DNA of 64,000 nucleotides, taken from assembly GCA_016932855.1 (NCBI GenBank), contig JAFGCB010000024.1, forward strand, positions 2,813-66,812, given 5' to 3'. A program made the position numbers and the translations under genes. Under the pieces are notes generated by a model that did no database searches, was not told the origin of the DNA, and was given only the letters and a program-made list of their open reading frames with translations. Shown here piece after piece: positions 19,750 through 42,652 of the stretch. This stretch comes from Candidatus Omnitrophota bacterium (lineage in GTDB: Bacteria; Omnitrophota; Gorgyraeia; Duberdicusellales; Duberdicusellaceae). Each line of letters starts with the position of its first letter. The stretch's first letter is position 1.

Positions 19750-21369
19750 TTAGGTAGACAAGGGTAAGGTTATTGTGAAGGTAGTGCCGTGGTTGGGCGT
19801 GCTTTCCACGTTTATCGTACCTTTATGGTTTTGGATTATTCCGTAGGTAATTGCCAGGCCAAGGCCGACGCCCTTTTCTTTCTTGGAGTAGAAAGCATCG
19901 AATATATGGGGCATATCCTCTTCTTTTATTCCTTTTCCTGTATCCTTTATCATTATAATAATGCTGTTTGTGTCCTGCAGCTTGTAGCCTGCAGCTGTAT
20001 TCAAGGTCGTTTCAACTACTATCTCTCCCCCATCCGGCATGGCATCTATAGCGTTTAATATTATGTTTAGAAAGGCCTGCTTAATTTGTTTTGAATCCAC
20101 CGAAACTTCGGGGATATCCTGGCAAAAGTTTTTCGCTAAGGAGATGTTTTGCTGTTTCAGTTTAATTTCGATTAATTCCAGGGTTTCCTCAAGAAGGTTG
20201 CGGACATTAGAAGGTTTAAGCTCTAAAGGCTTAGGAGAAGAAAATTCAAGGAGCTGTTTTACAATAGAGCCTATTCGGTCAAGTTCAGAAGGCACTATTC
20301 TTTTAAACTTCTTTCTAAATTCAGCATCAGCATATTTCTTATCAACATAATCAGCAAATGTCCTAATAGATGTTAAGGGATTCTTTATCTCATGAGCAAG
20401 CCCGGAAGCCATAGTCCCGGCAGCAGCAAGTCTTTCTGCCTGAAGAAGCTTAGCTTGGGTAGTCTGGAGCTCTTCTTGAAGAAGGGTTGTTCGGGAAAGC
20501 AAAAACCGCTCTGCCTTGCGTTGGAAATAGATGTATAGAAATGGACCAGCAGTTGCTAATACAAACATGCTTATTCCCATAGTGAGCCATGATTTTGTCT
20601 GATATCCTATGTAAAAAGGTAGTCCTAAAACGACAGTATACACTATAGTAAATATACTTACTCGAGTTGCAGCAATTTTAATGTCCATTAGTCGATATTT
20701 AATTATTGCATAAGTAATAAATAGTGGATAAAAACCAATCATTAAAATCGAATAAGGATATAAATGGATTCCAAAACTAGGCAAAAACTCGAATTCAGCT
20801 CCTATCCATCCTATCGTAACGCCAAGGATAAAGTATTTGAGCTGATTGCGTCGTATTCCAGTGGAGCGGTTATATGCTTTAATTATTAAGAAAAAATTAT
20901 AACCCAACAAAACCATGTAGAAGCCTACATAAAAAACTAAATAAATAATACTTTTTGTGTTAAGCCAGTCGTGCCAGTAGAATTGCTCAAAGATAAAGTT
21001 TAGTTTGCCTAAAAATAGGCGCGAGCGGCCATACCAATTTAAAAGTAGAAATAAAAAACTGAGTAGATAGATAGTTCGTATAAACCATTTCTTTTGAAGG
21101 CTTAAGTAGCGGATAACAAAGTGTGTGAAAAAAGCACAAACAAAAATCACGCCACTATAGCCAATTTGCCACCACAAGAGCGCTAAATTATATGATGTTT
21201 CAGGAAGACTCGAGGACACGCTACAGGCAAGTCCCCATAGACCACTAGATACCGCTACCCCGCTAAAAATTCTTGCAGAAGGGTTCTTTTTCCATTTGAG
21301 CAGAAGAAAAATCGCGATACCAAAGTTACTTACCGTGGTGATAATTGAAAATAGCGTAAAGAGCTTCAT
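19750..21369 (-). CDS. sensor histidine kinase with N-terminal 7TM sensor domain (HisKA_7TM-like)
   Basis: Multi-TM N-terminus with KYRLMDI motif shared with two paralogs; H-box LAHEIKNPLTSI; HATPase_c G-boxes; overlaps ispF by 4 bp. Confidence 0.8.
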   Translation of the reverse strand: MKLFTLFSIITTVSNFGIAIFLLLKWKKNPSARIFSGVAVSSGLWGLACSVSSSLPETSYNLALLWWQIGYSGVIFVCAFFTHFVIRYLSLQKKWFIRTIYLLSFLFLLLNWYGRSRLFLGKLNFIFEQFYWHDWLNTKSIIYLVFYVGFYMVLLGYNFFLIIKAYNRSTGIRRNQLKYFILGVTIGWIGAEFEFLPSFGIHLYPYSILMIGFYPLFITYAIIKYRLMDIKIAATRVSIFTIVYTVVLGLPFYIGYQTKSWLTMGISMFVLATAGPFLYIYFQRKAERFLLSRTTLLQEELQTTQAKLLQAERLAAAGTMASGLAHEIKNPLTSIRTFADYVDKKYADAEFRKKFKRIVPSELDRIGSIVKQLLEFSSPKPLELKPSNVRNLLEETLELIEIKLKQQNISLAKNFCQDIPEVSVDSKQIKQAFLNIILNAIDAMPDGGEIVVETTLNTAAGYKLQDTNSIIIMIKDTGKGIKEEDMPHIFDAFYSKKEKGVGLGLAITYGIIQNHKGTINVESTPNHGTTFTITLPLST

Positions 21370-21824
21370 TGAATAACAGCTACGCTAATGCAGAATAGGC
21401 ACTCTTTCCTGGCGGGGATTAGGCCTTCTTGAGATTTTACTTTGAGGTTGAGTTTAGTTTCAGGCAGTTTTAGGAGTTTGCAAAGGCTTTGCACTATTTT
21501 TTGTTTGAAGCTTTTAAGTTTCGGCCTTTCAAGGATTACGGTTATATCAATATTGTTTATTCTTCGCTTGCCGAGTAGTTTAAGGACTTTTTTAAGGATT
21601 TCTTTGCTTGAGATGCCTTTACATTTCGGGTCTTCCGGAGGAAAATAATCACCGATATCCCCTTTTCCTAATGCTCCTAATATGGCATCGCAGACACTAT
21701 GCAGTATTACGTCGGCATCAGAAATACCGGCTAAACCCTTTGTGTAAGGAATTTCCACCCCGCCAAGGATTAATTTTCTTCCTTTAACCAGTCTGTGAAC
21801 ATCGAAGCCGAGTCCAATCTTCAT
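21366..21824 (-). CDS. ispF: 2-C-methyl-D-erythritol 2,4-cyclodiphosphate synthase
   Basis: IGLGFDVHRL motif; 152 aa. Confidence 0.9.
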   Translation of the reverse strand: MKIGLGFDVHRLVKGRKLILGGVEIPYTKGLAGISDADVILHSVCDAILGALGKGDIGDYFPPEDPKCKGISSKEILKKVLKLLGKRRINNIDITVILERPKLKSFKQKIVQSLCKLLKLPETKLNLKVKSQEGLIPARKECLFCISVAVIQ

Positions 21825-21909
21825 TGTTTGTAAAATTGTTTTTCGGGCATAGCGTTTTGGGTGTGGGGTGCCGGGAAGAAACGAAACCCGATACGCGACA
21901 CCCGAAGAC

Positions 21910-24111
21910 CTACCGCTTTGTTGTTGGTAGTTCCATGTAAAAGGTTGAGCCCTTCATGTATTCCGATTCAAACCAGATTTTACCCCTGTGGTTTTCTTCA
22001 ACAATTCTTTTTATAACGTACATCCCAAGGCCGGTTCCGGATTTTGCCGATGATTTGGTGGTATAAAAAGGAGCGAACATCTTGGATTTATTCTCTTCGG
22101 CTATGCCGATCCCGTTATCACTGACTTTTACAAGCAAGGAACCTTCAAGAGGCTGTAATTCTATATTCAGCTCTTTTTCGACTTTTTGAGGATTTCCATG
22201 ATTTTTAAGAGCCATCTGCTTATCTTCTATTGCTTCATAAGCATTATCAATTAAGTTAAAAACTGCCTCGGATAGCTGGGCCGGCGAGCCCCAGACCTTG
22301 GGAGTACCGTCAGTAACTTTTATTGAAGGCTTAAAATCTTTGAGGTTATGCTTTACGCCTAAGAGGTCAACCGCAACGTTTATTATCTCGTTTATGTCGA
22401 AGAATCTAAAGGAAGCGTCTTTTTCAGTGCGGGCATAATTAAGAATTCCCCGGATAATCTGGGCTGAATGAAGCACGTTTTTTTCTATTTTATCAAGACC
22501 GTAGAGACAATATTCTAAATCCTTCCTTAAGTTTTCGGGGTTTTCTTTCTCAAGGGTAGTCTGCACTACGTCTTTTAAGTCTCCGGCAACCGCGGCAAAA
22601 GCCTGGAGACGGTTATTTAACTGGTGCGATACCCCTTCAGCCATAGCACCGACTGTAGCTAATTTATCAGCGTGGAATATCTTCTCCTGCGTTTTCTTAA
22701 ACTCTTCCAGAAACAAGCAGTTCTCAATTGCCAAAGAAGCCTGGTGCGCTAAAATCTTAAAGACATTTATATCATCCTCCGTAAAAACCTGCTTATTCGG
22801 TTTCGAGCCTAACGCTAATATGCCTAGAAGGTCTCTTTCGGTAAGTGAAGGGATTACTAAATGGAGCTTGAATCTTTCGAAAAATTCTTTAATTTCCTTT
22901 TGATTGGCGCTATCTTGAATAACAAAGGGGATATCTTCCAATAATAAAGCCTCTTGGGTTTTTAAAAGATATTCAATAATCGGATGGTCGTGAGAGATTG
23001 CAACCTCCTCTTTAAATAATTCTCTATCCCGGTAAGCTTCTAGTTTGTAAACCTTTCGTTCTTTGTCGAAACGGAATATCGCCGCTACATCGACCCGCAC
23101 AGCTTTCGTAACAATATGAACAATTAAATTGATAAGTCGTTTAAGTTCCCGAATTTTCACCATTCCCTGAGCAGCCTGGATTAGTGTTTTTTGGTATCTC
23201 TTTTGCTGGGCCAGTATAAGATTTTCAGCTTTCCTTCGTAAGCGTGTATAAATCAGAGGCCCGGTGCTTGCTAAAAGAAACATTATCGCAGTAGACGGAA
23301 GCCAGGATTGAGTGGTGTATCCTATCCAGAACGGAATACCGAGAACTAAGGCGTATACAAAAGAGAAAATTCCGAAGCGGGTCAAAACAACGTTGATGTC
23401 CATGAGACGGTATTTAAGTATTGCATAGGTAAATATCAAAGGATAGAGAACAATACAGAGGTTGCTATAAGGATAGAGTTTTACACCAATCTCTATTGAC
23501 CACATTAATATTGGACCTAGCCAGCCAATGACTGATGCAACTATGAAATATTTTATTTGATTTCGGAAAATGCCACTAGATCGCTTGTAAGATTTAACTA
23601 GTAATAAGAATGAGAATCCTAAAAGTATCCAGTAAAACGAAATGTAAAAAACCAAATATAGAGGTATTTTATATATCCACCAATCAGAGTAATAAAATTT
23701 ATTAAAAACAAAACTCATTCCGCCTACAAAATATTCCTTGGGGAAAAACAAATTTAGGGATAGGAAAGTGTAAGCCAGTGTATATATGGTAATTAATATA
23801 TATCTGAAATAATCCTTTTTGAGACTAAGGAATGTGTAGATGAAGTGATAATAAAGCACAGGAGTGAGGATAACTCCTATGTTGGCAATTCTCCGCCAGA
23901 AAATTGCAGTCTCAAGGTCAAAGGTTGTAGAGAATTTATATACACCTACGCCCCAAATTGTTGTGAGTATACATAGCCATCCCCAGATTTTAGTTTTAAT
24001 GTTACGAGTCTTTTTGTCTCTCCAGAACAAAAATATTGCCAATAGAGAATTGGTAACAACAACCAAAATTCCAGAAATGCTAAATAAGTTAATATTTTGC
24101 ATAAGAGGCAA
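21910..24111 (-). CDS. sensor histidine kinase, HisKA_7TM-like membrane domain + GAF + HisKA + HATPase_c
   Basis: 733 aa paralog of the 19750 and 34502 kinases; H-box GVSHQLNNRL; last gene of the lipid operon. Confidence 0.8.
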   Translation of the reverse strand: MPLMQNINLFSISGILVVVTNSLLAIFLFWRDKKTRNIKTKIWGWLCILTTIWGVGVYKFSTTFDLETAIFWRRIANIGVILTPVLYYHFIYTFLSLKKDYFRYILITIYTLAYTFLSLNLFFPKEYFVGGMSFVFNKFYYSDWWIYKIPLYLVFYISFYWILLGFSFLLLVKSYKRSSGIFRNQIKYFIVASVIGWLGPILMWSIEIGVKLYPYSNLCIVLYPLIFTYAILKYRLMDINVVLTRFGIFSFVYALVLGIPFWIGYTTQSWLPSTAIMFLLASTGPLIYTRLRRKAENLILAQQKRYQKTLIQAAQGMVKIRELKRLINLIVHIVTKAVRVDVAAIFRFDKERKVYKLEAYRDRELFKEEVAISHDHPIIEYLLKTQEALLLEDIPFVIQDSANQKEIKEFFERFKLHLVIPSLTERDLLGILALGSKPNKQVFTEDDINVFKILAHQASLAIENCLFLEEFKKTQEKIFHADKLATVGAMAEGVSHQLNNRLQAFAAVAGDLKDVVQTTLEKENPENLRKDLEYCLYGLDKIEKNVLHSAQIIRGILNYARTEKDASFRFFDINEIINVAVDLLGVKHNLKDFKPSIKVTDGTPKVWGSPAQLSEAVFNLIDNAYEAIEDKQMALKNHGNPQKVEKELNIELQPLEGSLLVKVSDNGIGIAEENKSKMFAPFYTTKSSAKSGTGLGMYVIKRIVEENHRGKIWFESEYMKGSTFYMELPTTKR

Positions 24112-25566
24112 TTATTTTCCAAATGGCCAATGTTTTCCGAGGTCTTCCAGGATTAACCGTGCGCATCGTCGTCCAGAAAATGCAACATTTGGGATACCGC
24201 CTTGCCCGGAAGAACCAGTGGTTGTCCAGTGGCCAACGAGATAGATCCCATCTATAGAAGTTCGTTGCGGAATAATATTAGATTTAATCTGGTTTAATGT
24301 AGATACCCATCCGAGTACGGCTCCGTTTTTATTTAAGGTGTACCGATGAAATGTATGCGGAGTGGCAAATATTTTGACGTCAATTAAATTACGGAGATCG
24401 TAAAAGACCTTCTCCGATTTTTTAATTATGCGATTGCCGACCTCTATTTTATTCTCATCCCAGAATTTCTTGGAAATATAAGGAGAATATATAAATAGTT
24501 GCATGGTCGGCCTATTGGTGTTGCTTAAGCTTATGTCATGAGCAGATGGGAAACAGCAGAAAAAGTAATCGAGGTCAGCGTTCAATATGTTATATTGCTG
24601 AGAATAAATTCTTGAGTACACTTTCTCGATATCGTAAGTGGCGAAATAGCAAGTATTTATTCTTTCAGCAATTTCATTGTGCGCGTTTTCTTTGAGACCT
24701 AAATATACCAAGAACATAGACGGAGATGGAGTTAGTTTATTAATTGTGTTAAGTTCCTTAGTTTTGACATCAATCAGGTCTCCGAATGTCATGGAAACGT
24801 CTGCATTCGAGATAATTATGTTAGATGCTATTTCATCGCTAGTATCTAGTATTACCTTTTTGATTTTATTAGTTGTAATTATCTTTACAACCTTGCGGGA
24901 GAAAATTATCTCTCCTCCTCGCTCTTTTAATTTCTTTACTAGCATATTTGGCAGAGTTTGAATGCCACCTTTTGGATAATAGCCAGAATCCAAAACATAC
25001 TCTCGAAATAGAATTATAGCTGAGATAGCTGCGGCTTTTTTAGGAGAAAGTGCAATATTACTTGATAGGCCACCTAAAACAGATTTTAGATTTGGATCTC
25101 GAAAAAAATAATCCAGGGTTTCTTGAAAGACTTGTCCCTTAACTTTTTTATAAATATTAAAAAGCTGTTCTTGCAGAATGAAGCCGAAAAACTTTTCAAG
25201 ATTTTTTCGTTCTTTAGGGAAGCTTTTTTGAAATTCCGTTAGTGTATTTTTGGGACAAGCCCGAATGTATGTAGTATTATCGGGGAATATTATTTTATCA
25301 GTTGGATCAGCTTGGGAAAATTCGAGGCTTTCGTCCATTTGTAGCTCTCGGAGAGTTTTGCCTAATATTCCTCGCTTGATGCCGCCTAGGTAGTGTACTC
25401 CAATGTCAAATTTATAACCCTTTCGTTCAAAAGAAGTGCAGTAGCCACCTGGTTTATCATGCTTTTCGATGATTAAAACCTTTAATCCGGCTTTTGATAA
25501 ATAATTTGCGCAGATTAAGCTTCCAATGCCAGAACCTACGAATATTGCATCAAATTGGGTGTTCAT
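24112..25566 (-). CDS. FAD-dependent oxidoreductase, phytoene desaturase (CrtI)-like family
   Basis: N-terminal dinucleotide-binding fold FDAIFVGSGIGSL...LIIEKHDKPGGY; 484 aa. Confidence 0.7.
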   Translation of the reverse strand: MNTQFDAIFVGSGIGSLICANYLSKAGLKVLIIEKHDKPGGYCTSFERKGYKFDIGVHYLGGIKRGILGKTLRELQMDESLEFSQADPTDKIIFPDNTTYIRACPKNTLTEFQKSFPKERKNLEKFFGFILQEQLFNIYKKVKGQVFQETLDYFFRDPNLKSVLGGLSSNIALSPKKAAAISAIILFREYVLDSGYYPKGGIQTLPNMLVKKLKERGGEIIFSRKVVKIITTNKIKKVILDTSDEIASNIIISNADVSMTFGDLIDVKTKELNTINKLTPSPSMFLVYLGLKENAHNEIAERINTCYFATYDIEKVYSRIYSQQYNILNADLDYFFCCFPSAHDISLSNTNRPTMQLFIYSPYISKKFWDENKIEVGNRIIKKSEKVFYDLRNLIDVKIFATPHTFHRYTLNKNGAVLGWVSTLNQIKSNIIPQRTSIDGIYLVGHWTTTGSSGQGGIPNVAFSGRRCARLILEDLGKHWPFGK

Positions 25567-26153
25567 TTAATGTAGTTAACGCTGTCTTTTATTGGCTTTC
25601 GGAGAGATCGTGTATTTCTCTGGCTCGCGTATCCGAGTGTGATTACAGCAACCATTTTGCCTTTGTGTCTAAGCAATTTATTTATTTTCTGTGCTTGAAG
25701 TAACGGCGTATCAAGCCAACAAGAGCCAACCCCAAAACTTTCCGCTACTAACATCATATTTTGTATAGCTGCGGCGATGGCGGACAGTTCAACAATATCA
25801 AGGATTCGCTCAAATTTTAAGTACAGTTGCTTGAGTCTGTGTCTCATTGCGTGCATATCTCCAGAATTATAAACAATAATGATGGCTGCCGCGCTACGAA
25901 TTATATTGCTTGCAGAATACTCTAGCAGATTGGATACTGTCTTCGTAGAGGAATCGGCTCTTAATAAAAGTTGAGCAATCTCAACTATAGTTTTTTTGTT
26001 AGTTATCGCGAAGAACTTCCATGGTTGGTAATGATGAACGGCAGGTCCCCATATTCCAGCTTCAATAATTTTCGAGAGAATATTATGAGGTATTCGTTTT
26101 TTCTTATATTCTCGTACACACTGTTTAGACTTTATTAAGCGTAATAATTCCAT
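25563..26153 (-). CDS. nitroreductase family protein
   Basis: 196 aa; N-terminal RIPHNILSKIIEAGIWGPAVHHYQPW nitroreductase-like; 4-bp overlap with the downstream gene. Confidence 0.6.
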   Translation of the reverse strand: MELLRLIKSKQCVREYKKKRIPHNILSKIIEAGIWGPAVHHYQPWKFFAITNKKTIVEIAQLLLRADSSTKTVSNLLEYSASNIIRSAAAIIIVYNSGDMHAMRHRLKQLYLKFERILDIVELSAIAAAIQNMMLVAESFGVGSCWLDTPLLQAQKINKLLRHKGKMVAVITLGYASQRNTRSLRKPIKDSVNYIK

Positions 26154-33617: not shown

Positions 33618-33998
33618 TTAAATAATAGTTTTTTTAATCGCCTCTAAAAGCACTGCGTTGTCAAAAGGTTTGTATAAATGCTCTGCTACTTTTAGTTTCA
33701 TCGCTTCCTGGTATTTCTCCATATCAGCATAACCTGTTATTAAAATCTCAGGGATTTGCTTCTTTTTTGCTTTATTTAAGTAGCTGCGGATTTGTTTAAT
33801 TATTTCAATGCCGTCCGCCTCGGGAATTCTGATATCGCAGATAATAAGATTAAAATCAGTTTCCTTTATTTTTTCTAAAGCTTCTTTCCCGCTTTGAGCA
33901 ATGCTTGTTTCATAGCCCGAGGTTTTTAAAAGCATGGATACGCTCTTTGTTACCAGCTCTTCGTCGTCAATCAATAGAATTCTTTTGCTCATAATCAA
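33618..33998 (-). CDS. single-domain response regulator (CheY-like receiver)
   Basis: 126 aa; clear paralog of the 29701 RR (ICDIRIPEADGIEIIKQIR...ILITGY). Confidence 0.8.
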   Translation of the reverse strand: MIMSKRILLIDDEELVTKSVSMLLKTSGYETSIAQSGKEALEKIKETDFNLIICDIRIPEADGIEIIKQIRSYLNKAKKKQIPEILITGYADMEKYQEAMKLKVAEHLYKPFDNAVLLEAIKKTII

Positions 33999-34076: not shown

Positions 34077-34487
34077 TTACGGTGATTTTAAATTCAGCCT
34101 TCGTATTTTGCAGCTTTTATTGCCAAAGTTTATCAATAAACCTACATTATAACCTGAGACTTTCATGTAAGACAAAAGCTGCGCTTCGAATAGCCTAGGC
34201 ATGATTCCGGTTACAGCCTTAACTTCGACTATTACCGAATTTTCAATAATTAGATCTATACGAAGAGTTCCGACTTTACGGCTGCGATAATCTACTTTAT
34301 ATTCGCTTTTCGTTGAGTACTTTAGGCCCGCGTCATTTAATGCCAGGTTTAAAGAATTATGATATATTTTTTCATTAAACCCCGGACCTAATTCGCTGTG
34401 AACTTTATACGCACAAGCGATGATTTTTTCCGTAAGCGGATCTCTTTCTTTAATCTTTGAAATCGGTTTCTTAATCTCTGTAATTAT
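34077..34487 (-). CDS. GxxExxY family protein, second paralog; no canonical start codon in frame
   Basis: My own minus-strand translation gives ...EIKKPISKIKERDPLTEKIIACAYKVHSELGPGFNEKIYHNSL...NFGNKSCKIRRLNLKSP*. The frame has no ATG/GTG/TTG near the expected N-terminus (only ATA/ATT) and runs on into the 3' end of the HK gene in another frame. It is absent from the ATG-based ORF track. Confidence 0.5.
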   Translation of the reverse strand: MITEIKKPISKIKERDPLTEKIIACAYKVHSELGPGFNEKIYHNSLNLALNDAGLKYSTKSEYKVDYRSRKVGTLRIDLIIENSVIVEVKAVTGIMPRLFEAQLLSYMKVSGYNVGLLINFGNKSCKIRRLNLKSP

Positions 34488-34501
34488 TGAAGAATATTTT
34501 G

Positions 34502-36709: not shown

Positions 36710-38179
36710 TTATTGTTTTCCATTCTTGAATTTATAGGCAAAATCATGCAAATTTAGCCCAAATAGGACAGCCACCAAAGATGCATTTCTTATTTTCCAT
36801 AAGCTTCGGATTACAAAATTAAATCGTTGTTTGTCGAACGAAAGAAAAGCTTTTAACGTAAGCATTAATCTTGTTCGTGAAAATAGAGCGGAAATACTAT
36901 AATTACGTTTTATTAAAACACCGCTTTTCCAGAGATTGACTAGGCGACTATACAGTTGCGGGTAGGAGTATATTTCTTTTAGAACTCGAATGTAGCCTTC
37001 TTCCAGTATTTTTTCGGACATAAATTTTGGTCTAAAACAAACATTGCTAAAAGTATATTTTTCCCAGCTTTCATGCAATAATCTTTGGTCTTTTTTTAAT
37101 CTTTTGTATAAACTTGTACCTACTAAAGGCGTCAGAATAGAAATTTGAGGAAACGCTATGTTAGATTCTTGCACAAAATTGATAATTTCATCAAATGTTT
37201 TTTCATCATCATAATCTTCGCCCAAAACAAAAGCACCCACTATCGAAATTCCAGAATGATGAATCCTATTAATTAATTCAATATATTCATGTCGTTTATT
37301 GACAGTGTTTTTTTTAATTAAATCCAAATTTTCTTGTCGCAAAGATTCGAAGCCGATCAATAATTGTCGACAACCACTCTTGTACATTAACTTCAATAAC
37401 TTATCATCTTTTGCAACATTCAATGAAACTTGTCCCCACCAATATTTAATTTTAAAAGGGGTAATAGCAGTAAAAAGTTCTTTGGCTCGTTCCGTATCAA
37501 AAACTATATTGTCATCGGCGAAAAAAATTCCTTTTCTTTTATCAATTCTTAATAAAGTTTCAATCTCGTGGATAACATTCTGGATTGGCTTTGGCCGGTA
37601 AGTATTACCTAAAAATGAAGTCACAGAACAAAATTCACATTTAAACGGGCACCCCCTAGCGGTTTGCATAATGTGAATATTATAAAGCTTATTTTTTAGC
37701 AAATCCCATCGCGGTACAGGAGAATGTGCTAAATCCGGAAATTTAGGTGCGTAATATATACTTTTAAGCTTTCTCTGACGAAAATCCTTTATTATGTCGG
37801 ACCATATCAGTTCTGCTTCTCCGACAACTACAGAATTTGCAAATTTAGAAGCTTCTTCAGGTAACATAGATGCATGAATTCCTCCTAGAATTACCGGTAT
37901 ATTTCGTTTTCGAAAATTATTTGCTATTTCATAGGCGCGCGGAGCTAGCGACGTATTAAACGTAATTCCTATTAAATCAACATCCTGTTGATAATTAATT
38001 GATTCGATGTTTTCGTCGATAAGTGTTATTTTGACATCTTTTGGAGTCAAGGCGGCTATGGTTGGTAATGCTAAAGGGGCACCCCCGCCGTATTTTCTAC
38101 CCAAAAGCTGAGCGGCAAATTTAAAATCCCAAAAATCGTAATCATCTTTTCTTGCAGGAGATATTAAAGCAAGTTTCAT
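36710..38179 (-). CDS. B12-binding domain radical SAM protein
   Basis: N-terminal cobalamin-binding-like Rossmann region; CPFKCEFCSV CxxxCxxC radical SAM cluster motif; 489 aa. Confidence 0.8.
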   Translation of the reverse strand: MKLALISPARKDDYDFWDFKFAAQLLGRKYGGGAPLALPTIAALTPKDVKITLIDENIESINYQQDVDLIGITFNTSLAPRAYEIANNFRKRNIPVILGGIHASMLPEEASKFANSVVVGEAELIWSDIIKDFRQRKLKSIYYAPKFPDLAHSPVPRWDLLKNKLYNIHIMQTARGCPFKCEFCSVTSFLGNTYRPKPIQNVIHEIETLLRIDKRKGIFFADDNIVFDTERAKELFTAITPFKIKYWWGQVSLNVAKDDKLLKLMYKSGCRQLLIGFESLRQENLDLIKKNTVNKRHEYIELINRIHHSGISIVGAFVLGEDYDDEKTFDEIINFVQESNIAFPQISILTPLVGTSLYKRLKKDQRLLHESWEKYTFSNVCFRPKFMSEKILEEGYIRVLKEIYSYPQLYSRLVNLWKSGVLIKRNYSISALFSRTRLMLTLKAFLSFDKQRFNFVIRSLWKIRNASLVAVLFGLNLHDFAYKFKNGKQ

Positions 38180-38243: not shown

Positions 38244-39812
38244 TTAAACCTTAGCAGTTTCTTTTATTTTTTCAATAAGTGGCTTATCGACTAATCGGTT
38301 TCCCCAGTGGAAATCAGAGACTTCAAAGCCGTGTTTTTTGCCGAGGTTTCTTATTTCATCAATCTTTTCTATGGTTATGTTTCCGCGTCCGAAACTAAAG
38401 TTTTCAAAGCGTTTTTCTAGCGCAAGAATAATTGCTTCAGCAAAGCACCCGTACAGAGTCTCAGTTGTGGGCAGGCCGGTGTCGAAAGGAAATGTAATCG
38501 GCGTGGGAGTTTTGGTTAAGCCTCCGGAGAAAATAAGAATATCTTCCCGGGCGGTGGGCATATAGGAAACATTCTTTGGATATCCGACGTCACAGATTAT
38601 TGCGCCGGGCTTAAACCAACTGACATTAAGAATTGAAGCGCTTACGCTTGCGGCAGCAATAATAATATCAGCATCTCTTACGGCCTTTTCGTTGTCTGTG
38701 GAAGCGACAATTTCAGCTTTGTGTTTTTTTGCTAATTCGTGGCGTAAAGCCCGGAGGTTTGTCTTTGTCCGGCCGGTGATAGTTAATGTTTTTACTTTAT
38801 CGGACAATACTCTTGAGCAAGCGCTTCCGATATCGCCGGTACCACCGATTATAGCGACTTTCACTTGACTTACATCGAGATTTAAAAGTTGCGCGCCTTT
38901 TAGGACTCCATCAATAGCCATGGCTGCGGTAAAGGTATTTCCGGAGGTAAGAGGTACGTCAACTTCATGGGCAGCTTGGTGGCCTATTCTTTCTGCGACG
39001 ATAGAAGTAAAGCCACCCAGGGTTACGATTCCCACTCCTTGTTTTTCAGCGATTTTACAGGCTTTAACAACTTTGGAGAATATTGCCCATTTATCCTTCT
39101 CCATCATATCCGGGATAAAAGTGGCTACAATAAAGCATCCATCTACTGTTTGCCCGGTTTTGGAGCGAAAATCTTTAATGTCTGATAATTTGAACGACGG
39201 TGTTATCTGGAAAAGCTGGCCGAGAAATTCCTGCGACGGTATTTTAAAATCCGGGTTTAACATTTGAAGGCATCTGGCCAGATGATTAAAATTATAGAGA
39301 TGTCCGATAATGCCGAAGCCGGCTAATTTTTCGGTGTCGCCGTTTTTATAGCTGGTATACCTTGTGGATACCAGCCTTTTTTCCAGGGCCATTAATATTG
39401 CGGTAAAGTTGCTAGTAACTATTTGTTTCATAAAAGGTTCGGCAAAATCGCTTATTGCCGGGACACCTGCCCTCAGGTAAACTTTTAGGGAAACTAAAGT
39501 CCCTTCGGGGCGGTCTTCGAATTTCCACTCACCATGAAACTCTTCCAGGTCCCCTTCGATTGTCGTGAAACAGATGGTATTATTTTTTAAATCAAGAGTA
39601 TCTTCCTCTATCCAGCGTATAGGTACCTTGCTTACTTCTATTCGCCAATTTGTTTTCATTTTATTGTGAGTTTTCTCAATTACAGTAGCTTCCTTAACAC
39701 AAGGTACATATGACGGGAATTCCCACACTTTGGTTAAAAGTCGAACTACTCTCCATTTTTGGGCAGGGATTATTCTTGAAACGTTTACTTCGATTAGGTT
39801 TTTATCCGGCAT
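38244..39812 (-). CDS. SRPBCC (polyketide cyclase/START-like) domain fused to acyl-ACP reductase (cyanobacterial AAR-like)
   Basis: C-terminal ~340 aa aligns block by block with Synechococcus acyl-ACP reductase as I recall it: FGIIGHL, LGGFTSIV, TSGNTFTA, VAIIGGTGDIGSACSRVL, DVGYPKN, YGCFAEAIILALE, NFSFGRGNITIEKIDEI, KHGFE. N-terminal ~150 aa is an SRPBCC-type lipid-binding fold. Confidence 0.7.
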   Translation of the reverse strand: MPDKNLIEVNVSRIIPAQKWRVVRLLTKVWEFPSYVPCVKEATVIEKTHNKMKTNWRIEVSKVPIRWIEEDTLDLKNNTICFTTIEGDLEEFHGEWKFEDRPEGTLVSLKVYLRAGVPAISDFAEPFMKQIVTSNFTAILMALEKRLVSTRYTSYKNGDTEKLAGFGIIGHLYNFNHLARCLQMLNPDFKIPSQEFLGQLFQITPSFKLSDIKDFRSKTGQTVDGCFIVATFIPDMMEKDKWAIFSKVVKACKIAEKQGVGIVTLGGFTSIVAERIGHQAAHEVDVPLTSGNTFTAAMAIDGVLKGAQLLNLDVSQVKVAIIGGTGDIGSACSRVLSDKVKTLTITGRTKTNLRALRHELAKKHKAEIVASTDNEKAVRDADIIIAAASVSASILNVSWFKPGAIICDVGYPKNVSYMPTAREDILIFSGGLTKTPTPITFPFDTGLPTTETLYGCFAEAIILALEKRFENFSFGRGNITIEKIDEIRNLGKKHGFEVSDFHWGNRLVDKPLIEKIKETAKV

Positions 39813-40398
39813 TGATTAACTCCTTGATTGTGTTTTTGGTTTTAAGAGTACCTTCCTGTAAGTAAATATCATTAATTACTTCCCCGAATTCTTTCAAAAT
39901 GAATACCGGTTTACCGATTTTTACTTTAATAGGAAGAAAGAATTTTGCGAATCGCGCTCCAAAAGGAAGGGCTTTGTAAGCGCCCAGGATTGCGCAGGGA
40001 AGAATAGGCCTGCCGGTTTTAGCGGCTAAAAGCGCTGCGCCTCTGCGAAATTCACCGAGACTTCCGTCAGTGCTAAGTTTTCCTTCCGGATACAGGCCCA
40101 CGTTTTTATTCTTTAATAATAATCGTACAGCCTTATCTGAGGCATTTCCAGTAGGCAAAGCTTCCACTTTTAAGAGAAACCATTTTATGAAGGCAATTCC
40201 GTAAAGATAACGGGCCACCAGGCAGTAGATTTTTTTGGGAACAGCAGCCATGATGATTAAAGGATCAAGAAAGCTGGCATGGTTGGCAACGATAATGAAA
40301 TTTGTTTTCTGGGGGATGTTTTCTAATCCCTCCACTTCAAATTTGTAAAATGTTTTGAAAAACACGCGAAATATAGCGCAAAATATATAGTACCACAT
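39802..40398 (-). CDS. lysophospholipid (1-acyl-glycerol-3-phosphate-type) acyltransferase, PlsC family
   Basis: HxxxxD motif VANHASFLD; FPEG motif YPEGKLS; 198 aa. Confidence 0.75.
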   Translation of the reverse strand: MWYYIFCAIFRVFFKTFYKFEVEGLENIPQKTNFIIVANHASFLDPLIIMAAVPKKIYCLVARYLYGIAFIKWFLLKVEALPTGNASDKAVRLLLKNKNVGLYPEGKLSTDGSLGEFRRGAALLAAKTGRPILPCAILGAYKALPFGARFAKFFLPIKVKIGKPVFILKEFGEVINDIYLQEGTLKTKNTIKELINAG

Positions 40399-40584
40399 CT
40401 ACTTATTATTGTTATTTTCCTGGTTTTCGACCCATTCCTCTATTTTAGCTTTTTTAAAGCGCCAGTGTTTACCGACCCTAAAGGCCGGGATTTTCCCGGT
40501 CCTTGCCAGTTGATAAAGACTCGAGCGAGGTATTTTTAAATATTTACAGACTTCTTCTGCGGTTAAGATTACTTCTTGTACCAT
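40399..40584 (-). CDS. excisionase/AlpA-family helix-turn-helix DNA-binding protein
   Basis: 61 aa; LTAEEVCKYLKIPRSSLYQLARTGKIPAFRVGKHWRF is typical of the MerR-like excisionase HTH; abuts the plsC-like gene. Confidence 0.6.
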   Translation of the reverse strand: MVQEVILTAEEVCKYLKIPRSSLYQLARTGKIPAFRVGKHWRFKKAKIEEWVENQENNNNK

Positions 40585-40600
40585 CTTAATTCACGGTTCT

Positions 40601-40628
40601 AGCAGTTATAGCGGTTATAGCAGTTATG
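40601..40628. repeat. iteron-like direct repeats AGCAGTTAT-AGCGGTTAT-AGCAGTTAT
   Basis: Three contiguous 9-mers read directly, about 20 bp upstream of the HTH gene start. Confidence 0.7.
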
Positions 40629-40715
40629 TTACAGGATAGCTAAAAGTTTGTCAAGCATTTCTTGGGAGATTTGCAACAGGTCATCGAATTATTATTCACG
40701 CAATAAAACCACGGT

Positions 40716-41405
40716 TTATGGGCTTTGAGGGGCTAGTTTAAAGGGTTTATCCCGGCAGGTATCAAAAAGTTCCTTTAAGTCTTCTAGGTTAGACAAAATC
40801 AGGAGTAAATCTTTCTTTTTATCCTTATCACAATTATCTAAAGCGACGGCGACTTCGGCAATCATTGCTTTTAGTGCTGTTTCATAATCTTCCTTATTGT
40901 CCGGCCCGACAAGGGGCAGGTTGATTGCCGCAGGGTCCATGAAGGAGACGACTATTGCTCCGTCGATTTCTTTGGTCGACAGATTAAGGCGGTAAACTAC
41001 GTGCAAGACCATGGGTTTTTCGCCGATAGAGGCATTTCCATCTTTTGCAACGGAATCGCCATTAATGCCGGGGAAGAAATTTTGGTCGCGAAGCCGAAAG
41101 ATGATTGAATGTTCAGTTAGCAACTCGTCATCATCTGCGGTTATCCCAACCATATTTTTGGTGATTTCAATTTCGGGTATTGTAAAATCTTGCCCATAAA
41201 GAGTCAGATTGCTGTTTATAGGTAAATCAACAGTCATTTCCATCTCTTTAAATTTCAACTTGTAGAGCTGCATGGGCGTAAACAGCGAATCAAGGGATAA
41301 CGCCGGCATTTGCGTATTGAAATCAGGTTTTACTTTTTCTCGGTCAGGGTATGTGCTATGCAGGCAAAAAAGAAACCCTATTACAAAAATCAATGTTTTT
41401 TTCAA
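40716..41405 (-). CDS. hypothetical secreted protein
   Basis: 229 aa with N-terminal signal peptide; no recognisable motifs. Confidence 0.4.
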   Translation of the reverse strand: MKKTLIFVIGFLFCLHSTYPDREKVKPDFNTQMPALSLDSLFTPMQLYKLKFKEMEMTVDLPINSNLTLYGQDFTIPEIEITKNMVGITADDDELLTEHSIIFRLRDQNFFPGINGDSVAKDGNASIGEKPMVLHVVYRLNLSTKEIDGAIVVSFMDPAAINLPLVGPDNKEDYETALKAMIAEVAVALDNCDKDKKKDLLLILSNLEDLKELFDTCRDKPFKLAPQSP

Positions 41406-41761: not shown

Positions 41762-41790
41762 TTGAAAATACTTGATGCTATTGCTAAAAT
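41762..41790 (+). promoter_or_regulatory. sigma70-type promoter TTGAAA-N17-TAAAAT
   Basis: Near-consensus -35/-10 with 17-nt spacer on the plus strand in a 560-bp gene-free spacer. Confidence 0.45.
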
Positions 41791-41796
41791 TATGTT

Positions 41797-41889
41797 ACCT
41801 TAAAGTCGCTTTAAATGGGTCTCCATCGAGGGACCAAAGCCACGTATATACCCCTTCCCTGTCTATGTAGGGAAGGGGTTCTTTATTTC
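41797..41889 (+). ncRNA. candidate small RNA (~90 nt) between promoter and intrinsic terminator
   Basis: Promoter at 41762-41790 and terminator hairpin at 41851-41878 + T-tract bracket a ~90-nt unit with no coding potential. Confidence 0.3.
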
Positions 41890-41905
41890 TCGCAAGGCGA
41901 GAAAT
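41851..41905 (+). terminator. intrinsic terminator hairpin CCCCTTCCC-loop-GGGAAGGGG + TTCTTTATTT, followed by a second hairpin ATTTCTCGC/GCGAGAAAT
   Basis: Perfect 9-bp GC-rich stem with T-rich tail read directly; the second hairpin could terminate ispD on the minus strand. Confidence 0.55.
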
Positions 41906-41965
41906 AAATCCAACTGACAAATGACAAAATCCAAATGAAATCCAGAATCTATTGGGATTAGTTTA

Positions 41966-42652
41966 TTATTGGGAATCCCGTAGTTTTGACAAGTAAAATC
42001 TCGCAAGGGAAAGGTCGTGGGGAGTTGTTATTTTGAAATTCGAAGGAGAGGACGGAATAATCTTAACTTCTTTGTGTTTTTCGATTAAGATCACATCATC
42101 ATAGACATTTTTCGCCTTTTTACTTTTTGCCAAGAGATTTTTAATAAGTTTTACCCGGAGTCCCTGGGGAGTTTGAATCTGATAAATATTTCTTCTATCC
42201 AGGGTGCTTTTAACAATTTTTTGGCTATTCACAGACTTCAAGGTATCCTTGGCCGGTATTCCCGGAACCGCAGCCTCATATTTTTCTAAGGCAGAAATAA
42301 TCCTGGTAATCAGCTCTTTTTTTACGAATGGCCTGGCGGCATCGTGAATAAGGACATATTTAGCCTTAGGGCTAATACTTTCTAAGCCGTTAACAACAGA
42401 GTCTTTGCGCTGTCTTCCTCCGGCTATAACCTTTCCTGTCTTGTTAAATCCATAACGCCTGACTAAATCTTCAGCTTTTTTAATCTGATTTTTCCGGACA
42501 ACCAGTATGATTTCGCTGATTTTGGGGTGTTTCTGGAAGGTCTTCAGGCTGTAAAACAAGATAGGTTTGCTGCCCAGGGCAAGGAAAGCCTTAGGCTTTG
42601 CGCCCATGCGCTTGCCTTTGCCGGCGGCAACGATTATTGCATCAGTTTTCAT
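41966..42652 (-). CDS. ispD: 2-C-methyl-D-erythritol 4-phosphate cytidylyltransferase
   Basis: AIIVAAGKGKRMG N-terminal motif; 228 aa. Confidence 0.9.
   Translation of the reverse strand: MKTDAIIVAAGKGKRMGAKPKAFLALGSKPILFYSLKTFQKHPKISEIILVVRKNQIKKAEDLVRRYGFNKTGKVIAGGRQRKDSVVNGLESISPKAKYVLIHDAARPFVKKELITRIISALEKYEAAVPGIPAKDTLKSVNSQKIVKSTLDRRNIYQIQTPQGLRVKLIKNLLAKSKKAKNVYDDVILIEKHKEVKIIPSSPSNFKITTPHDLSLARFYLSKLRDSQ

Follow-up and report, generated by a model that had tools for sequence, protein, structure and literature searches.

A phylum-typical lipid/polyketide-type gene cluster that probably moved between ispD and ispF in a sub-clade of Omnitrophota

Extended FAS II ('ladderane-type') gene clusters have been described in Kuenenia stuttgartiensis and Desulfotalea psychrophila (Rattray et al. 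2009, PMC2649909), and antiSMASH 'ladderane' calls have been reported for metagenome-assembled genomes (MAGs) of Omnitrophota (PMC9902471). The myxobacterial elb ether-lipid cluster includes ElbD, a reductase-ACS-ACP-AGPAT protein whose homologues were reported in 93 of 267 Omnitrophota MAGs (PMC9131029, PMC11868695). Aryl polyene (APE) clusters and the acyl-ACP reductase (AAR) of the cyanobacterial AAR/ADO alkane pathway are further points of reference for the locus described here.

Gene content of the locus and its relation to described clusters

The window, the whole stretch of 64,000 nt that was analyzed, derives from an uncultured Omnitrophota (Omnitrophica) bacterium. Its IspD matches exactly a protein on an 85.9-kb contig of an NCBI 'Candidatus Omnitrophica' MAG, and proteins identical to those of the window carry that database name. 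The separation of ispD from ispF by ~20 kb that was noted in a preliminary description is real: 20.1 kb lie between the two genes, both on the minus strand, within a conserved housekeeping order. The genes named in that description all were located with Pfam and NCBIfam at or near the positions assigned to them, also on the minus strand. Three sensor kinases exist as it proposed, but the third is situated outside the block between ispF and cysS, and therefore ispF is embedded in inserted material instead of marking its edge. Relatives are denoted by L and a number. The features are as follows.

41966..42652, minus: ispD (PF01128, 209 bits), closing the housekeeping array that precedes the insertion
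41762..41890, plus: small convergent transcription unit at the ispD-side junction (promoter/terminator scan)
40716..41405, minus: predicted lipoprotein, 229 aa, signal peptide with FLFC lipobox
40585..40660, minus: promoter of the cluster (TTGACA-17-TAACAT), with three direct repeats of 9 nt in the leader
40399..40584, minus: HTH_17/excisionase-family DNA-binding protein, 61 aa (TIGR01764, 61.9 bits)
39802..40398, minus: PlsC/LPLAT-family acyltransferase (PF01553), HX4D motif intact (HASFLD)
38244..39812, minus: fusion of SRPBCC (lipid-binding) and AAR-like domains (TIGR04058, 184 bits), signature gene of the cluster
36710..38179, minus: B12-binding radical SAM protein (DUF4070; Pfam), occupying the variable slot that follows the AAR fusion
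34502..36697, minus: 7TM-GAF-HisKA sensor histidine kinase (Pfam), the cluster kinase or 'type I'
about 34078..34500, minus: second PD-(D/E)XK_3 (GxxExxY) minigene (PF13366, E 6e-35)
33618..33998, minus: receiver-only response regulator (PF00072), 63% identical to the L066 orthologue
33125..33577, minus: PD-(D/E)XK_3 (GxxExxY) minigene (PF13366 and TIGR04256)
31665..33017, minus: PilZ and SAM-methyltransferase-like fusion (Pfam)
27257..31565, minus: chain-building module (Pfam and NCBIfam), made up of the next six genes
30816..31565, minus: FabG-like ketoreductase (KR), above the FabG equivalog cut-off
30549..30797, minus: acyl carrier protein (ACP), below all ACP cut-offs
30078..30548, minus: FabZ-like dehydratase (DH), above a FabZ cut-off
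29701..30078, minus: receiver-only response regulator
28461..29732, minus: CLF (inactive KS) with none of the Cys-His-His triad
27257..28480, minus: KS with Cys-His-His intact, above a FabF-subfamily cut-off
24112..27241, minus: tailoring trio (Pfam and NCBIfam), made up of the next three genes
26135..27241, minus: stand-alone thioester reductase (NAD_binding_4)
25563..26153, minus: nitroreductase-family flavoprotein
24112..25566, minus: CrtI/amine-oxidase-family flavoprotein
21910..24111, minus: second 7TM-GAF sensor kinase (Pfam), no HisKA match, last gene before ispF
21366..21824, minus: ispF (PF02542), 85 nt downstream of the kinase gene
19750..21369, minus: third 7TM sensor kinase (Pfam)

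The lipoprotein had no Pfam, NCBIfam or PADLOC match, its single-sequence AlphaFold model was unusable (pLDDT 38), and its gene, which was not found in L056-L066, is specific to the version of the block in this genome. No matches to defense systems were obtained. Inverted repeats of 32 nt (33005-33036 and 33599-33630) flank the minigene at 33125-33577, which has no counterpart in L066. The minigene at 34078-34500, which has no ATG, GTG or TTG start, fills an apparent gap without an entry in the gene list and is bracketed by inverted repeats at 34036-34049 and 34471-34484; the corresponding gap in L066 is ~60 nt. An intergenic motif that is dispersed in the host genome recurs inside the block. 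The second kinase is 32% identical to the other cluster kinase and 36% identical to the second kinase of L056, which has the same architecture. The third kinase, at 30–38% identity to the other two, is an old paralogue, and was not found in any relative including L066, in which the ispF-cysS gap is ~140 nt. It is followed by a near-perfect hairpin of 105 nt (19647-19751; −43.7 kcal/mol, z −9.6) with a U-run, the whole feature spanning 19640..21369.

FabF paralogues whose active sites are altered occur both in ladderane-type clusters and in the block, alongside ACP, FabZ and FabG, a B12/radical SAM enzyme, a SAM methyltransferase and PF01593 phytoene-desaturase-like flavoproteins; a product is known only from anammox bacteria. 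However, the radical SAM protein of the block does not belong to the TIGR04072 lipid-biosynthesis family (rSAM_ladder_B12, 80 bits vs. 360) and also scores below the NCBIfam cut-offs for HpnJ (102) and BchE (95). Moreover, the radical SAM and CrtI-like genes are not conserved in the Omnitrophota cluster, whereas the SRPBCC/AAR fusion, PlsC, HTH protein and embedded two-component system of the block are not described for ladderane-type clusters. APE clusters share with the block a KS with an inactive CLF, a dedicated ACP, a KR, a FabZ/ApeI-ApeP-like DH, an LPLAT/PlsC acyltransferase and the lack of an enoyl reductase. The block differs in having no aryl-starter activating enzyme, thioesterase, glycosyltransferase, or LolA-like or MMPL export genes, and APE clusters in having no acyl-ACP reductase or embedded kinases. 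The AAR fusion matches the entire TIGR04058 model, although its 184 bits are below the equivalog cut-off of 450, and aligns over its full length with the Synechococcus elongatus AAR structure 6JZQ (E 1e-37) such that Cys456 is opposite the catalytic Cys294; release of acyl-ACP as fatty aldehyde is therefore predicted. Unlike the cyanobacterial enzyme, the domain carries an SRPBCC domain at its N-terminal side as a fusion, is neighbored by an acyltransferase and variable oxidoreductases, and is not accompanied by an aldehyde-deformylating oxygenase in the block. As in the elb cluster, genes for a fatty-acyl reductase (NAD_binding_4), an AGPAT/PlsC acyltransferase, a carrier protein and NAD-dependent epimerase-family proteins occur together, a combination which by analogy makes an alkyl or ether lipid route plausible. 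The block differs from elb in that the domains are separate proteins with no single ElbD, the adenylation/ACS domain and the ElbB (HAD) gene are lacking, and a KS/CLF chain-building module is present.

The chemistry of the block is deduced entirely from domain content, and no Omnitrophota lipid data were found in the literature searched. The KS/CLF pair, ACP, KR and DH, with no enoyl reductase detected by Pfam in the module or the block, would generate a dedicated hydroxy- or unsaturated acyl-ACP that the AAR domain and the stand-alone reductase may release as aldehyde or alcohol. Acylation of a glycerolipid acceptor would fall to the PlsC enzyme, and tailoring of the chain to the products of the methyltransferase, flavoprotein and radical SAM genes. 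Output would be controlled by the HTH protein and the repeats in the leader, together with the membrane kinases, the receivers and the PilZ domain. The cluster is best interpreted as a self-regulated system of lipid/polyketide type. It is unlikely that the block is instead a housekeeping fatty-acid/phospholipid operon (fabG-acpP-fabZ-fabF-plsC) displaced by an ordinary shuffle of synteny and devoid of a specialized product. The KR, DH and KS exceed the FabG equivalog, FabZ and FabF-subfamily cut-offs noted above, a PlsC-family gene is present, and the cluster is phylum-wide with highly conserved sequence, but FabD, FabH and an enoyl reductase were not found in the block and the ACP falls under every ACP cut-off. 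The KS is partnered by a dead CLF-like protein as in type II PKS and aryl-polyene systems, the DH proteins of relatives match ApeI/ApeP-like models, and the AAR fusion, thioester reductase, radical SAM protein and CrtI-like flavoprotein are foreign to housekeeping fatty acid synthesis.

Ancestral gene order and the usual site of the cluster

The ispD side of the window has the order mcsA-mcsB-clpC-(unknown)-mlaEFD-radA-yacL and the ispF side the order cysS-tmk-holB-PSP1/ricT-metG-tatD. The genes of the Bacillus-type array that previously was recognized in these flanks are present, but the order is that of the Omnitrophota themselves; collinearity with the window was observed for L003 (Ca. Omnitrophota) and for 45 metagenome loci. 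The mla operon, formerly regarded as an insertion between clpC and radA, occupies this position in 14 of 19 loci and represents the ancestral state instead. Of 31 Omnitrophota loci with yacL, ispD and ispF, 28 have the latter two genes <150 nt apart, among them the collinear loci L003, L011 and L013. Contiguity of ispD and ispF in relatives, which the preliminary description anticipated, hence is borne out. Because 28 of the 31 loci keep the pair adjacent, the comparison supports an ancestrally contiguous ispD-ispF pair in which the block is a derived insertion. IspF is 64% identical to its counterparts in L011, L012 and L066, a level that would be expected from vertical descent.

The inserted genes follow an order that is conserved elsewhere in the phylum: HTH_17, PlsC, SRPBCC/AAR fusion, variable tailoring slot, 7TM kinase, receivers, KR, ACP, DH and KS/CLF. 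In five of six long contigs the cluster is downstream of rpoA-rplQ-...-lplA-gcvH, and gene order is kept both at this canonical site (L056, L058, L060, L061 and L064) and in L062, in which the cluster occupies a third locus. Orthologues are 46–72% identical overall, with values of 46–69% for the chain-building module (L058, L060 and L062) and 55–65% for PlsC. The AAR fusion has >120 homologue clusters at 65–73% identity, exceeding that of IspD, and every named one is from Omnitrophota. The slot that follows it holds different genes in other genomes. The TTGACA promoter upstream of the HTH gene is present in seven relatives also, and the HTH_17 gene, at 49–78% identity, precedes PlsC in every relative examined. 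The excisionase-family gene and 'iterons' that were thought to mark an edge are, respectively, the conserved first gene of the cluster and the 9-nt leader repeats (GCTATAACC/GCTATAACT/GCTAGAACC). Judged by their CTATAACYG counterparts in L062 and L066, the latter are conserved repeats between the promoter and the start codon of the HTH gene.

The block resembles genomic islands and integrative elements in that a multi-gene segment, absent from most relatives, breaks a conserved order and includes a small excisionase-family HTH gene. A foreign accessory island delivered by a mobile element, with that gene and its adjoining repeats marking one edge, nevertheless is quite improbable. At 0.386 vs. 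0.434 in the flanks (p about 4e-6), GC3 is reduced in the block, as the island interpretation offered previously would have it, but the shift is modest; four genes account for most of it, and the conserved core is flank-like. Within the window GC3 reaches its minimum in the radical SAM gene (0.265), whose homologues are taxonomically mixed with the nearest only 54% identical, and the tailoring trio (0.34–0.36), for which the best match in other cluster loci is 28% to the L062 amine oxidase, is below core and flanks alike. Against foreign acquisition of the whole, the named homologues of the core genes are confined to Omnitrophota at 65–73% identity and are syntenic at another locus, the HTH gene and repeats are parts of the conserved cluster, and sister lineages possess the same insertion vertically. 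No integrase or other recombinase, transposase or tRNA was found in or around the block, and the flanking direct repeats (att) that also had been contemplated were not found at its edges. On the strength of sequence comparison, the backbone of the block is an Omnitrophota-conserved cluster for which the accessory or foreign interpretation does not hold. Foreign origin is plausible only for sub-parts, namely the radical SAM gene, the thioester reductase/nitroreductase/CrtI-like trio and the PD-(D/E)XK minigenes.

Junctions, sister lineages and history of the insertion

The window comes from a MAG, and the ispF-side junction (kinase-ispF-kinase-cysS) is supported by this assembly only. However, a chimeric contig that fuses unrelated regions is extremely improbable: the independent Logan assembly SRR13394437 reproduces the ispD-side junction from clpC through ispD to the PilZ-methyltransferase gene with identical proteins, the ispD-HTH junction is the same in L066, L067 and L068 from three other samples, a single L066 contig has the cluster running into ispF-cysS, and the genes overlap and are spaced as in an operon. 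Hairpins are located 3′ of ispD. Within ~130 nt beside this gene that are conserved in the window, L066, L068 and L069, the convergent unit has a promoter-like site at 41762-41790 and, in addition to AAAGCCACG, a conserved hairpin of 6 bp and a terminator stem of 13 bp that runs into a U-rich tail (41850-41889). It occupies the same position in all four lineages with base pairs kept despite base changes, and its match to the PyrR-binding-site model is sub-threshold (36.6 bits, gathering 54; 23.7 bits in L068).

In the nearest relatives, L066 and L068, the HTH-PlsC-SRPBCC genes immediately follow ispD. The layout of L066 is ispD-[HTH-PlsC-AAR-unknown-HK-RR-PilZ]-ispF-cysS, an 8.7-kb version that ends at ispF, and that of L068 is ispD-[HTH-PlsC-SRPBCC...]. 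The proposal of a lineage-specific island thus stands for one sub-lineage but not for this genome privately. A neighbor-joining tree of RadA, YacL and IspD (simple distances, 776 columns) placed the window as sister to a group of L066, L068 and L069 with bootstrap support of 92.5%, whereas L011 and L012, which lack the insert, fell outside this clade. Conversely, the AAR fusion of the window is 66% identical to that of L066 and 69–73% identical to those of distant genomes, the two were sisters in 0 of 100 bootstraps, and the cluster kinase is 50–54% identical to those of L058, L060, L063 and L064 vs. 38% to that of sister L066. A single insertion with vertical descent consequently requires either replacement of a cassette or accelerated rates. 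The AAR, PlsC and kinase proteins of the window and L066 are not mutual closest relatives, and the junction has been struck separately by a GNAT gene (L012) and a PEPCK gene (L014), as would suit a recombination hot spot at ispD|ispF that had captured variants of the cluster independently at least twice. Such captures are unlikely, given that the cluster-bearing lineages are monophyletic, the 130-nt junction element is common to them, and the HTH (73–78%), receiver (63%) and PilZ-methyltransferase (58%, to a 450-aa protein directly before ispF in L066) are closest between the window and L066/L068. The mosaic fits replacement of a middle cassette between conserved cluster ends.

The favored explanation, which we consider likely, is a clade-level rearrangement in which a native, phylum-typical cluster with a proposed lipid function moved into the ispD/ispF gap. 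The cluster would have been transplanted into a 20-nt junction in the ancestor of the window, L066, L068 and probably L069, with later remodeling of the middle cassette (slot gene and kinase), which differs among the sister lineages. The radical SAM gene, the reductase/nitroreductase/CrtI-like trio, the two PD-(D/E)XK minigenes and the third kinase probably were added subsequently, and the lipoprotein gene may be counted among these extras. For the 9.7-kb half with the chain-building and tailoring genes, loss from L066 may have occurred instead of gain in this genome. The analysis of this genome covered the window, and the event may have been a duplication with a second copy of the cluster at the canonical site. 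Promoter scanning found no promoter-like site in the 85-nt gap before ispF, whose stop lies in a 4-nt overlap with the third kinase gene. Because the cluster was inserted and remodeled, ispD would now be terminated by its own hairpins, and ispF probably is read through from the last kinase gene of the cluster and coupled translationally to the third. The product of the cluster would be a reduced or unsaturated lipid, likely a specialized membrane lipid and possibly of ether, aldehyde or polyene type.

Gene order and content around ispD and ispF

The genes flanking the block, the ~20-kb interval that separates ispD from ispF, were collinear with those of L003, a GTDB representative of Candidatus Omnitrophota, and with 45 yacL-anchored metagenome loci. 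L003 alone was useful among the nine loci recovered when genome contigs were scanned with concatenated IspD and IspF peptide patterns, which proved over-specific. The same clpC...ispD...PilZ-MT order, where PilZ-MT denotes a PilZ and methyltransferase fusion, is contained in an independent Logan assembly (SRR13394437). Spacing between ispD and ispF was <150 nt, and typically about 20 nt, in 28 of 31 loci holding yacL, ispD and ispF. With the pair adjoining in these relatives, the split noted in the preliminary description is a real and derived interruption. The junction also is occupied by a GNAT acetyltransferase gene in locus L012 (11698-12162) and by a GTP-type PEP carboxykinase gene in L014 (11740-13617), and it is therefore a recurrent breakpoint, disrupted on more than one occasion.

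The mla operon between clpC and radA had been regarded as a second insertion, which was not sustained: mla is located there in 14 of 19 loci and therefore is ancestral to most of the group. A 313-aa protein without a Pfam or NCBIfam match is encoded between clpC and mlaE (47444-48385, minus strand), and occupies the same position in closer relatives with 38-43% identity in L011, L012 and L066. Between ispF and cysS, six loci (L016, L017, L042, L044, L045 and L047) encode a 222-243-aa hexapeptide-repeat protein with an N-terminal membrane segment that looks like the product of cysE (serine acetyltransferase), as in the Bacillus order. Four of these loci (L016, L017, L042 and L047) have no mla between clpC and radA; L044 and L045 stop short of that region. 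No relative compared has a kinase gene between ispF and cysS. A gene for a protein with DUF362 and 4Fe-4S ferredoxin domains in the tatD-mtnA interval (12072-13217, minus strand) was found only in some relatives (L011, L017, L019 and L036), and its position is another variable point of the conserved array.

The ORF listing placed all large reading frames of the region on the minus strand, and matches to Pfam and NCBIfam upheld the gene list drawn up previously.

Gene layout from the ispD-side flank to mtnA
ispD-side flank: aminotransferase IV, mcsA, mcsB, clpC, uncharacterised gene, mlaE, mlaF, mlaD, radA, yacL (PIN-TRAM), ispD
41966-42652, minus: ispD
Block gene 1 from the ispD side: 229-aa predicted lipoprotein
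Block gene 2: 61-aa excisionase-family HTH protein
Block gene 3: PlsC-type acyltransferase, HX4D motif intact
Block gene 4: 522-aa fusion of SRPBCC and acyl-ACP-reductase-like (AAR) domains
Block gene 5: B12-radical SAM enzyme
Block gene 6: 7TM-GAF-HisKA kinase
About 34078-34500, minus: PD-(D/E)XK_3 / GxxExxY minigene 2; inverted repeats 34036-34049/34471-34484, 14 nt at 100%
Next: receiver-only regulator
33125-33577, minus: PD-(D/E)XK_3 / GxxExxY minigene 1; inverted repeats 33005-33036/33599-33630, 32 nt at 81%
Next: PilZ-MT fusion
Next: FabG-like ketoreductase (KR), acyl carrier protein (ACP), FabZ-like dehydratase (DH), second receiver-only regulator
Ketosynthase pair (KS/CLF): KS-like CLF with Cys, His and His all absent; neighbouring KS with triad intact
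ispF-side end: stand-alone thioester reductase, nitroreductase-family protein and CrtI/amine-oxidase-family flavoprotein (the trio), second 7TM-GAF kinase
21366-21824, minus: ispF
19750-21369, minus: 7TM histidine kinase (third kinase), after ispF
Beyond: cysS, tmk, holB, PSP1/ricT, metG, tatD, DUF362 gene, mtnA

Other genes fill ~20.1 kb from ispD to ispF. The third kinase gene is on the far side of ispF, with which it has a 4-nt overlap, and ispF therefore is embedded rather than flanking. Identities of 30-38% ruled out the three kinases as recent duplicates. The ~500-nt apparent gap between the kinase and response regulator genes (about 34078-34500) does not hold a degraded response regulator but encodes the second PD-(D/E)XK_3 protein, which lacks an ATG, GTG or TTG start and so was missed by the ORF listing. 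The 229-aa predicted lipoprotein had no family match in Pfam or NCBIfam, and its AlphaFold model, built without an alignment, had a pLDDT of 38.

Native origin of the block

Homologues of the SRPBCC/AAR fusion formed >120 clusters with 65-73% identity, every named one being from Omnitrophota, and merged into a single representative under 50% clustering. Judged by identity, the fusion is more conserved than IspD, for which values were 35-57%. The genomic contexts of seven homologues contained one recurring cluster, and the definition of an Omnitrophota HTH-PlsC-SRPBCC/AAR-HK-RR-KR-KS/CLF cluster (HK/RR, kinase/response regulator) was drawn from these relatives in the present analysis.

Recurring cluster in relatives and its usual location
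Start: HTH_17, PlsC, SRPBCC/AAR
Variable slot: NAD-epimerase-family gene plus 511-aa uncharacterised gene; or GMC oxidoreductase; or epimerase plus formyltransferase
After the slot: sensor kinase plus one to three receiver-only proteins
End: KR, CLF/KS, ACP and FabZ(ApeI-like) module; or methyltransferase plus second kinase
Array at the canonical site: rpoA-rplQ-aminotransferase-aconitase-T2SSE-aconitase_C-Iso_dh-Ldh-Pyr_redox-LplA-biotin_lipoyl

From 40584 down to 33618 the window has the HTH_17, PlsC, SRPBCC/AAR, slot, kinase and receiver order of L056, L058, L060-L064 and L066. A module of KR, KS/CLF, ACP and FabZ/ApeI-like DH genes adjoins at 31565-27257 and has orthologues of 46-69% identity in L058, L060 and L062; the internal order of this chain-building module is rearranged in the window, with PilZ-MT and response regulator genes interleaved. 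Five of the six long contigs (L056, L058, L060, L061 and L064) have the cluster directly downstream of the rpoA-rplQ array, and L062 has it at a third site that is neither this nor ispD-ispF. The ispD-ispF interval is the location of the cluster in the window, L066 and L068, rather than the site downstream of rpoA-rplQ...lplA-gcvH. In L062, a 23S_rRNA_IVP-family minigene lies between the ACP and DH genes (18435-18782), an invasion of the same cluster, in another lineage, by a different type of small intervening gene.

The HTH gene and its associated "iterons" had been read as the edge of a mobile element. This interpretation fell away, as the HTH gene always opens the cluster, preceded by the terminator of the upstream gene and a TTGACA promoter. 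The supposed iterons are three 9-nt repeats (CTATAACYG) that lie between the -10 element and the start codon and recur in L062 and L066; the repeats appear operator-like, and unlike replication iterons or an att site.

The ORFs of 19.7-42 kb had no integrase, recombinase or transposase domains in Pfam, and the only mobility candidates there were the two PD-(D/E)XK_3 minigenes with their own short inverted repeats. No tRNA gene was present at the block edges, those of the window being at 2222 and 60660 only, and Rfam at gathering thresholds gave these two tRNAs and nothing else. The search for direct repeats proposed for the edges yielded no att-like pair bracketing the block. PADLOC gave no meaningful matches for a defence island. 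Composition, also proposed as a check, differed as GC3 was lower in the block than in the flanks (0.386 vs. 0.434, p 4e-6), but the shift is driven by the radical SAM gene, the trio and the kinases, and the conserved core genes (0.39-0.44) are flank-like. The core gene content is typical of Omnitrophota rather than foreign. Thus, the description of the block as a lineage-specific inserted island stands as far as the derived interruption of ispD-ispF is concerned, but the block is a relocated, remodelled native cluster that is common to a small Omnitrophota clade, and not a foreign accessory island.

The motif CGCGGAAATTAGC and its variants are dispersed in intergenic regions of both block and flanks (nine matches vs. 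2.5 expected), with sites at 8901, 16512, 16533, 19527, 33020, 33042 and 33580. These include positions upstream of cysS, upstream of PilZ-MT and within the inverted repeats that bracket one PD-(D/E)XK minigene, and the sequences preceding cysS and PilZ-MT agree at 73-75% of positions over ~40-60 nt. The spread of the motif inside and outside the block fits long residence in the genome.

Probable inheritance and remodelling in a small clade

The closest relatives of the window IspD among 5.8 billion proteins were those of L066 (57%), L068 (56%) and L069 (52%). L066, a JGI metagenome locus, has the order radA-yacL-ispD-[HTH-PlsC-SRPBCC/AAR-516 aa uncharacterised-HK-RR-PilZ protein]-ispF-cysS, in which the insert at the same ispD-ispF site is an 8.7-kb version. 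The order in L068 (GCA_042568255.1) is yacL-ispD-[HTH-PlsC-SRPBCC...] as far as the contig end, and in L069 no ispF was present within 1 kb after ispD. Occurrence of the same block in close relatives had been named as an observation against a lineage-specific island: a version does occupy the same site in L066 and L068, but only in a shorter form. A neighbor-joining tree of RadA, YacL and IspD (776 ungapped columns, 200 bootstraps) supported the grouping (window,(L066,L068,L069)) at 92.5%; the cluster-free loci L011 and L012 fell outside this group, and all six were united at 100%. The simplest history suggested by these patterns is one insertion in the ancestor of the sub-clade.

The ~130 nt directly after ispD are conserved in the window, L066, L068 and L069. 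A small transcription unit convergent with ispD is located at 41762-41890 (plus strand) of the window, with counterparts at 10750-10890 (minus) in L066, 2938-3080 (minus) in L068 and 3320-3460 (minus) in L069. In the window it comprises a promoter-like site on the plus strand, a 6-bp variable-loop hairpin, AAAGCCACG and a 13-bp terminator with a U-rich tail, and may be an sRNA or an attenuator remnant. Identity with the PyrR attenuator was rejected: the match reached 36.6 bits (23.7 in L068) where the gathering score is 54, the unit lacks the middle hairpin, and its strand carries no gene downstream. The spacer after ispD in L066 (about 11150-11300) has paired REP-like hairpins (CCACGGCCTTACAGCCGTGG / CCACGCCCTTACAGGCGTGG) and the motif CACCCCACACC, which occurs once in the window (21860-21870) within the kinase-ispF gap (21825-21909).

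Compared with one another, the window and L066 clusters form a mosaic. Genes at the edges are mutually closest (HTH 73%, receiver 63% and PilZ-MT 58%). The AAR fusions of the two loci are 66% identical vs. 69-73% to distant genomes, and the PlsC proteins are 57% identical vs. 59-65%. The AAR fusions were sisters in none of 100 bootstraps, and the AAR tree, being star-like or discordant, lent no support when used to test co-descent of the two clusters. The cluster kinases are of two types and are only 38% identical between the window and L066: that of the window is 50-54% identical to the kinases of L058, L060, L063 and L064, and the L066 kinase shares 52-61% identity with its counterparts in L056, L061 and L062. 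The slot holds a radical SAM gene in the window and the 516-aa uncharacterised gene in L066. Across L056, L058, L060-L064 and L066, the kinase types (~38% mutual identity) co-vary with the slot gene, type I accompanying a GMC oxidoreductase, an 879-aa fusion or radical SAM, and type II an epimerase and 511-516-aa uncharacterised gene; the slot and kinase therefore appear to move jointly as a cassette. The patterns fit a replacement of the middle cassette between conserved ends, with independent captures of the cluster at the same ispD-ispF site as a minority alternative.

Within the block, GC3 points to the radical SAM gene (0.265) and the trio (0.34-0.36) as the youngest parts. The radical SAM protein shares 54% identity with its nearest homologue, and its matches came from Omnitrophica, Elusimicrobiota, Actinobacteria and Lokiarchaeia. 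The two PD-(D/E)XK minigenes, which lie either side of one response regulator gene, look like small mobile cassettes, and both are absent from the sister locus L066. A counterpart of the third kinase gene or of the lipoprotein gene was found in no relative compared. The 9.7-kb KR...kinase half may reflect either gain in the window lineage or loss in L066.

Expression and predicted function

Two strong hairpins (z -5.5) follow ispD, and the cluster has its own conserved promoter. The ispF gene begins 85 nt past the last cluster kinase gene, with no promoter-like site in the gap. A 105-nt near-perfect hairpin followed by a U-run (19647-19751; -43.7 kcal/mol, z -9.6) sits between the third kinase gene and cysS and ends the former, and cysS is preceded by its own promoter-like site. 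The hairpin consists of two tandem 47-nt units, each with the palindrome TATTCCAATATTCTTAAGAATATTGGAATA, and has no other copy in the window. Because of the promoterless gap, the 4-nt overlap, the terminal hairpin and the separate promoter-like site of cysS, ispF probably is the penultimate gene of a kinase-containing transcript.

The block lacks at least one defining feature of each of the known lipid-type families compared. It resembles ladderane-type extended FAS II clusters in combining a PF01593 flavoprotein, divergent FabF paralogues, ACP and FabZ, but its radical SAM protein scored 80.1 bits vs. a cut-off of 360 for TIGR04072; the best matches of this protein were HpnJ and BchE, far below their cut-offs. 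Extended FAS II clusters have been discussed for ladderane and polyunsaturated lipids and overlap in components with the block (PMC2649909), and antiSMASH "ladderane" calls are reported in Omnitrophota (PMC9902471). Like aryl polyene or type II PKS clusters, the block has KS plus CLF, ACP, KR and DH without an enoyl reductase, but its Pfam matches included neither an adenylating enzyme or ammonia-lyase for an aryl starter nor thioesterase, LolA-like or MMPL export genes. It shares the reductase and AGPAT logic of the myxobacterial elb ether-lipid genes, but it distributes the reductase, ACP and AGPAT-like domains over individual genes and lacks an adenylation domain, whereas ElbD is a multidomain reductase-ACS-ACP-AGPAT protein (PMC9131029); elb/ElbD homologues are reported in 93 of 267 Omnitrophota MAGs (PMC11868695). 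In comparison with the cyanobacterial AAR/ADO system, the AAR-like domain matched the full TIGR04058 model, albeit with 184 bits vs. a cut-off of 450, but a ferritin-like/ADO gene is absent from the block and from the clusters of relatives. The domain also aligned full-length with PDB 6JZQ (E 1e-37), and the Cys is kept, Cys456 being placed opposite Cys294, the catalytic residue of that enzyme. The organism is uncultured, and a literature search on this cluster or on Omnitrophota lipids found nothing specific.

Read from its domains, the cluster as a whole probably would function as follows. The KS/CLF heterodimer with a dedicated ACP, KR and DH, but no enoyl reductase, would produce hydroxy- or unsaturated acyl-ACP; reductive release as aldehyde or alcohol would fall to the AAR domain together with the NAD_binding_4 reductase, and the SRPBCC domain would bind lipid. 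The PlsC enzyme would move acyl chains onto a glycerolipid, tailoring may be provided by the radical SAM, CrtI-like, nitroreductase and methyltransferase genes, and the 7TM kinases, receiver-only proteins, PilZ domain and HTH protein are predicted to act in sensing and control. That the block instead is a housekeeping FAS operon is improbable: its proteins did score above the cut-offs of housekeeping models (TIGR01830 (FabG), 306 vs. 298; NF000582 (FabZ), 134 vs. 113; PRK07314 (FabF), 411 vs. 387), but FabD, FabH and enoyl-ACP reductase are absent from the block, and a specialised system is favoured by the CLF and AAR genes that it contains. Tentatively, and with considerable doubt, this specialised system may represent a hitherto undescribed pathway, spread across the whole phylum, by which Omnitrophota make a non-canonical membrane lipid, either ether-type and derived from fatty aldehyde or alcohol, or polyunsaturated. 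Such a pathway would have an exchangeable slot for tailoring genes (radical SAM, GMC oxidoreductase or epimerase-family), would be under the control of sensor kinases of its own embedded in the membrane and, in the clade of the window, would have captured ispF at the end of the operon.

Architecturally the block is an ordinary case in which a native cluster appears to have moved into a housekeeping operon, been inherited by a small clade and been remodelled by cassette exchange and small insertions, and it does not belong in catalogues of islands gained by horizontal transfer. The analysis identifies a strongly conserved, Omnitrophota-wide, lipid-type gene set that includes the SRPBCC/AAR fusion, the PlsC enzyme, the KS/CLF pair and embedded sensors. 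The cluster is a concrete candidate for the source of the survey "ladderane" calls and ElbD homologues in Omnitrophota, and studies of ether lipids and unusual lipids in bacteria could take it as a defined target for heterologous expression. If the proposed pathway is correct, capture of ispF, an essential gene of the MEP pathway, would tie the supply of isoprenoid precursors to expression of the lipid cluster.
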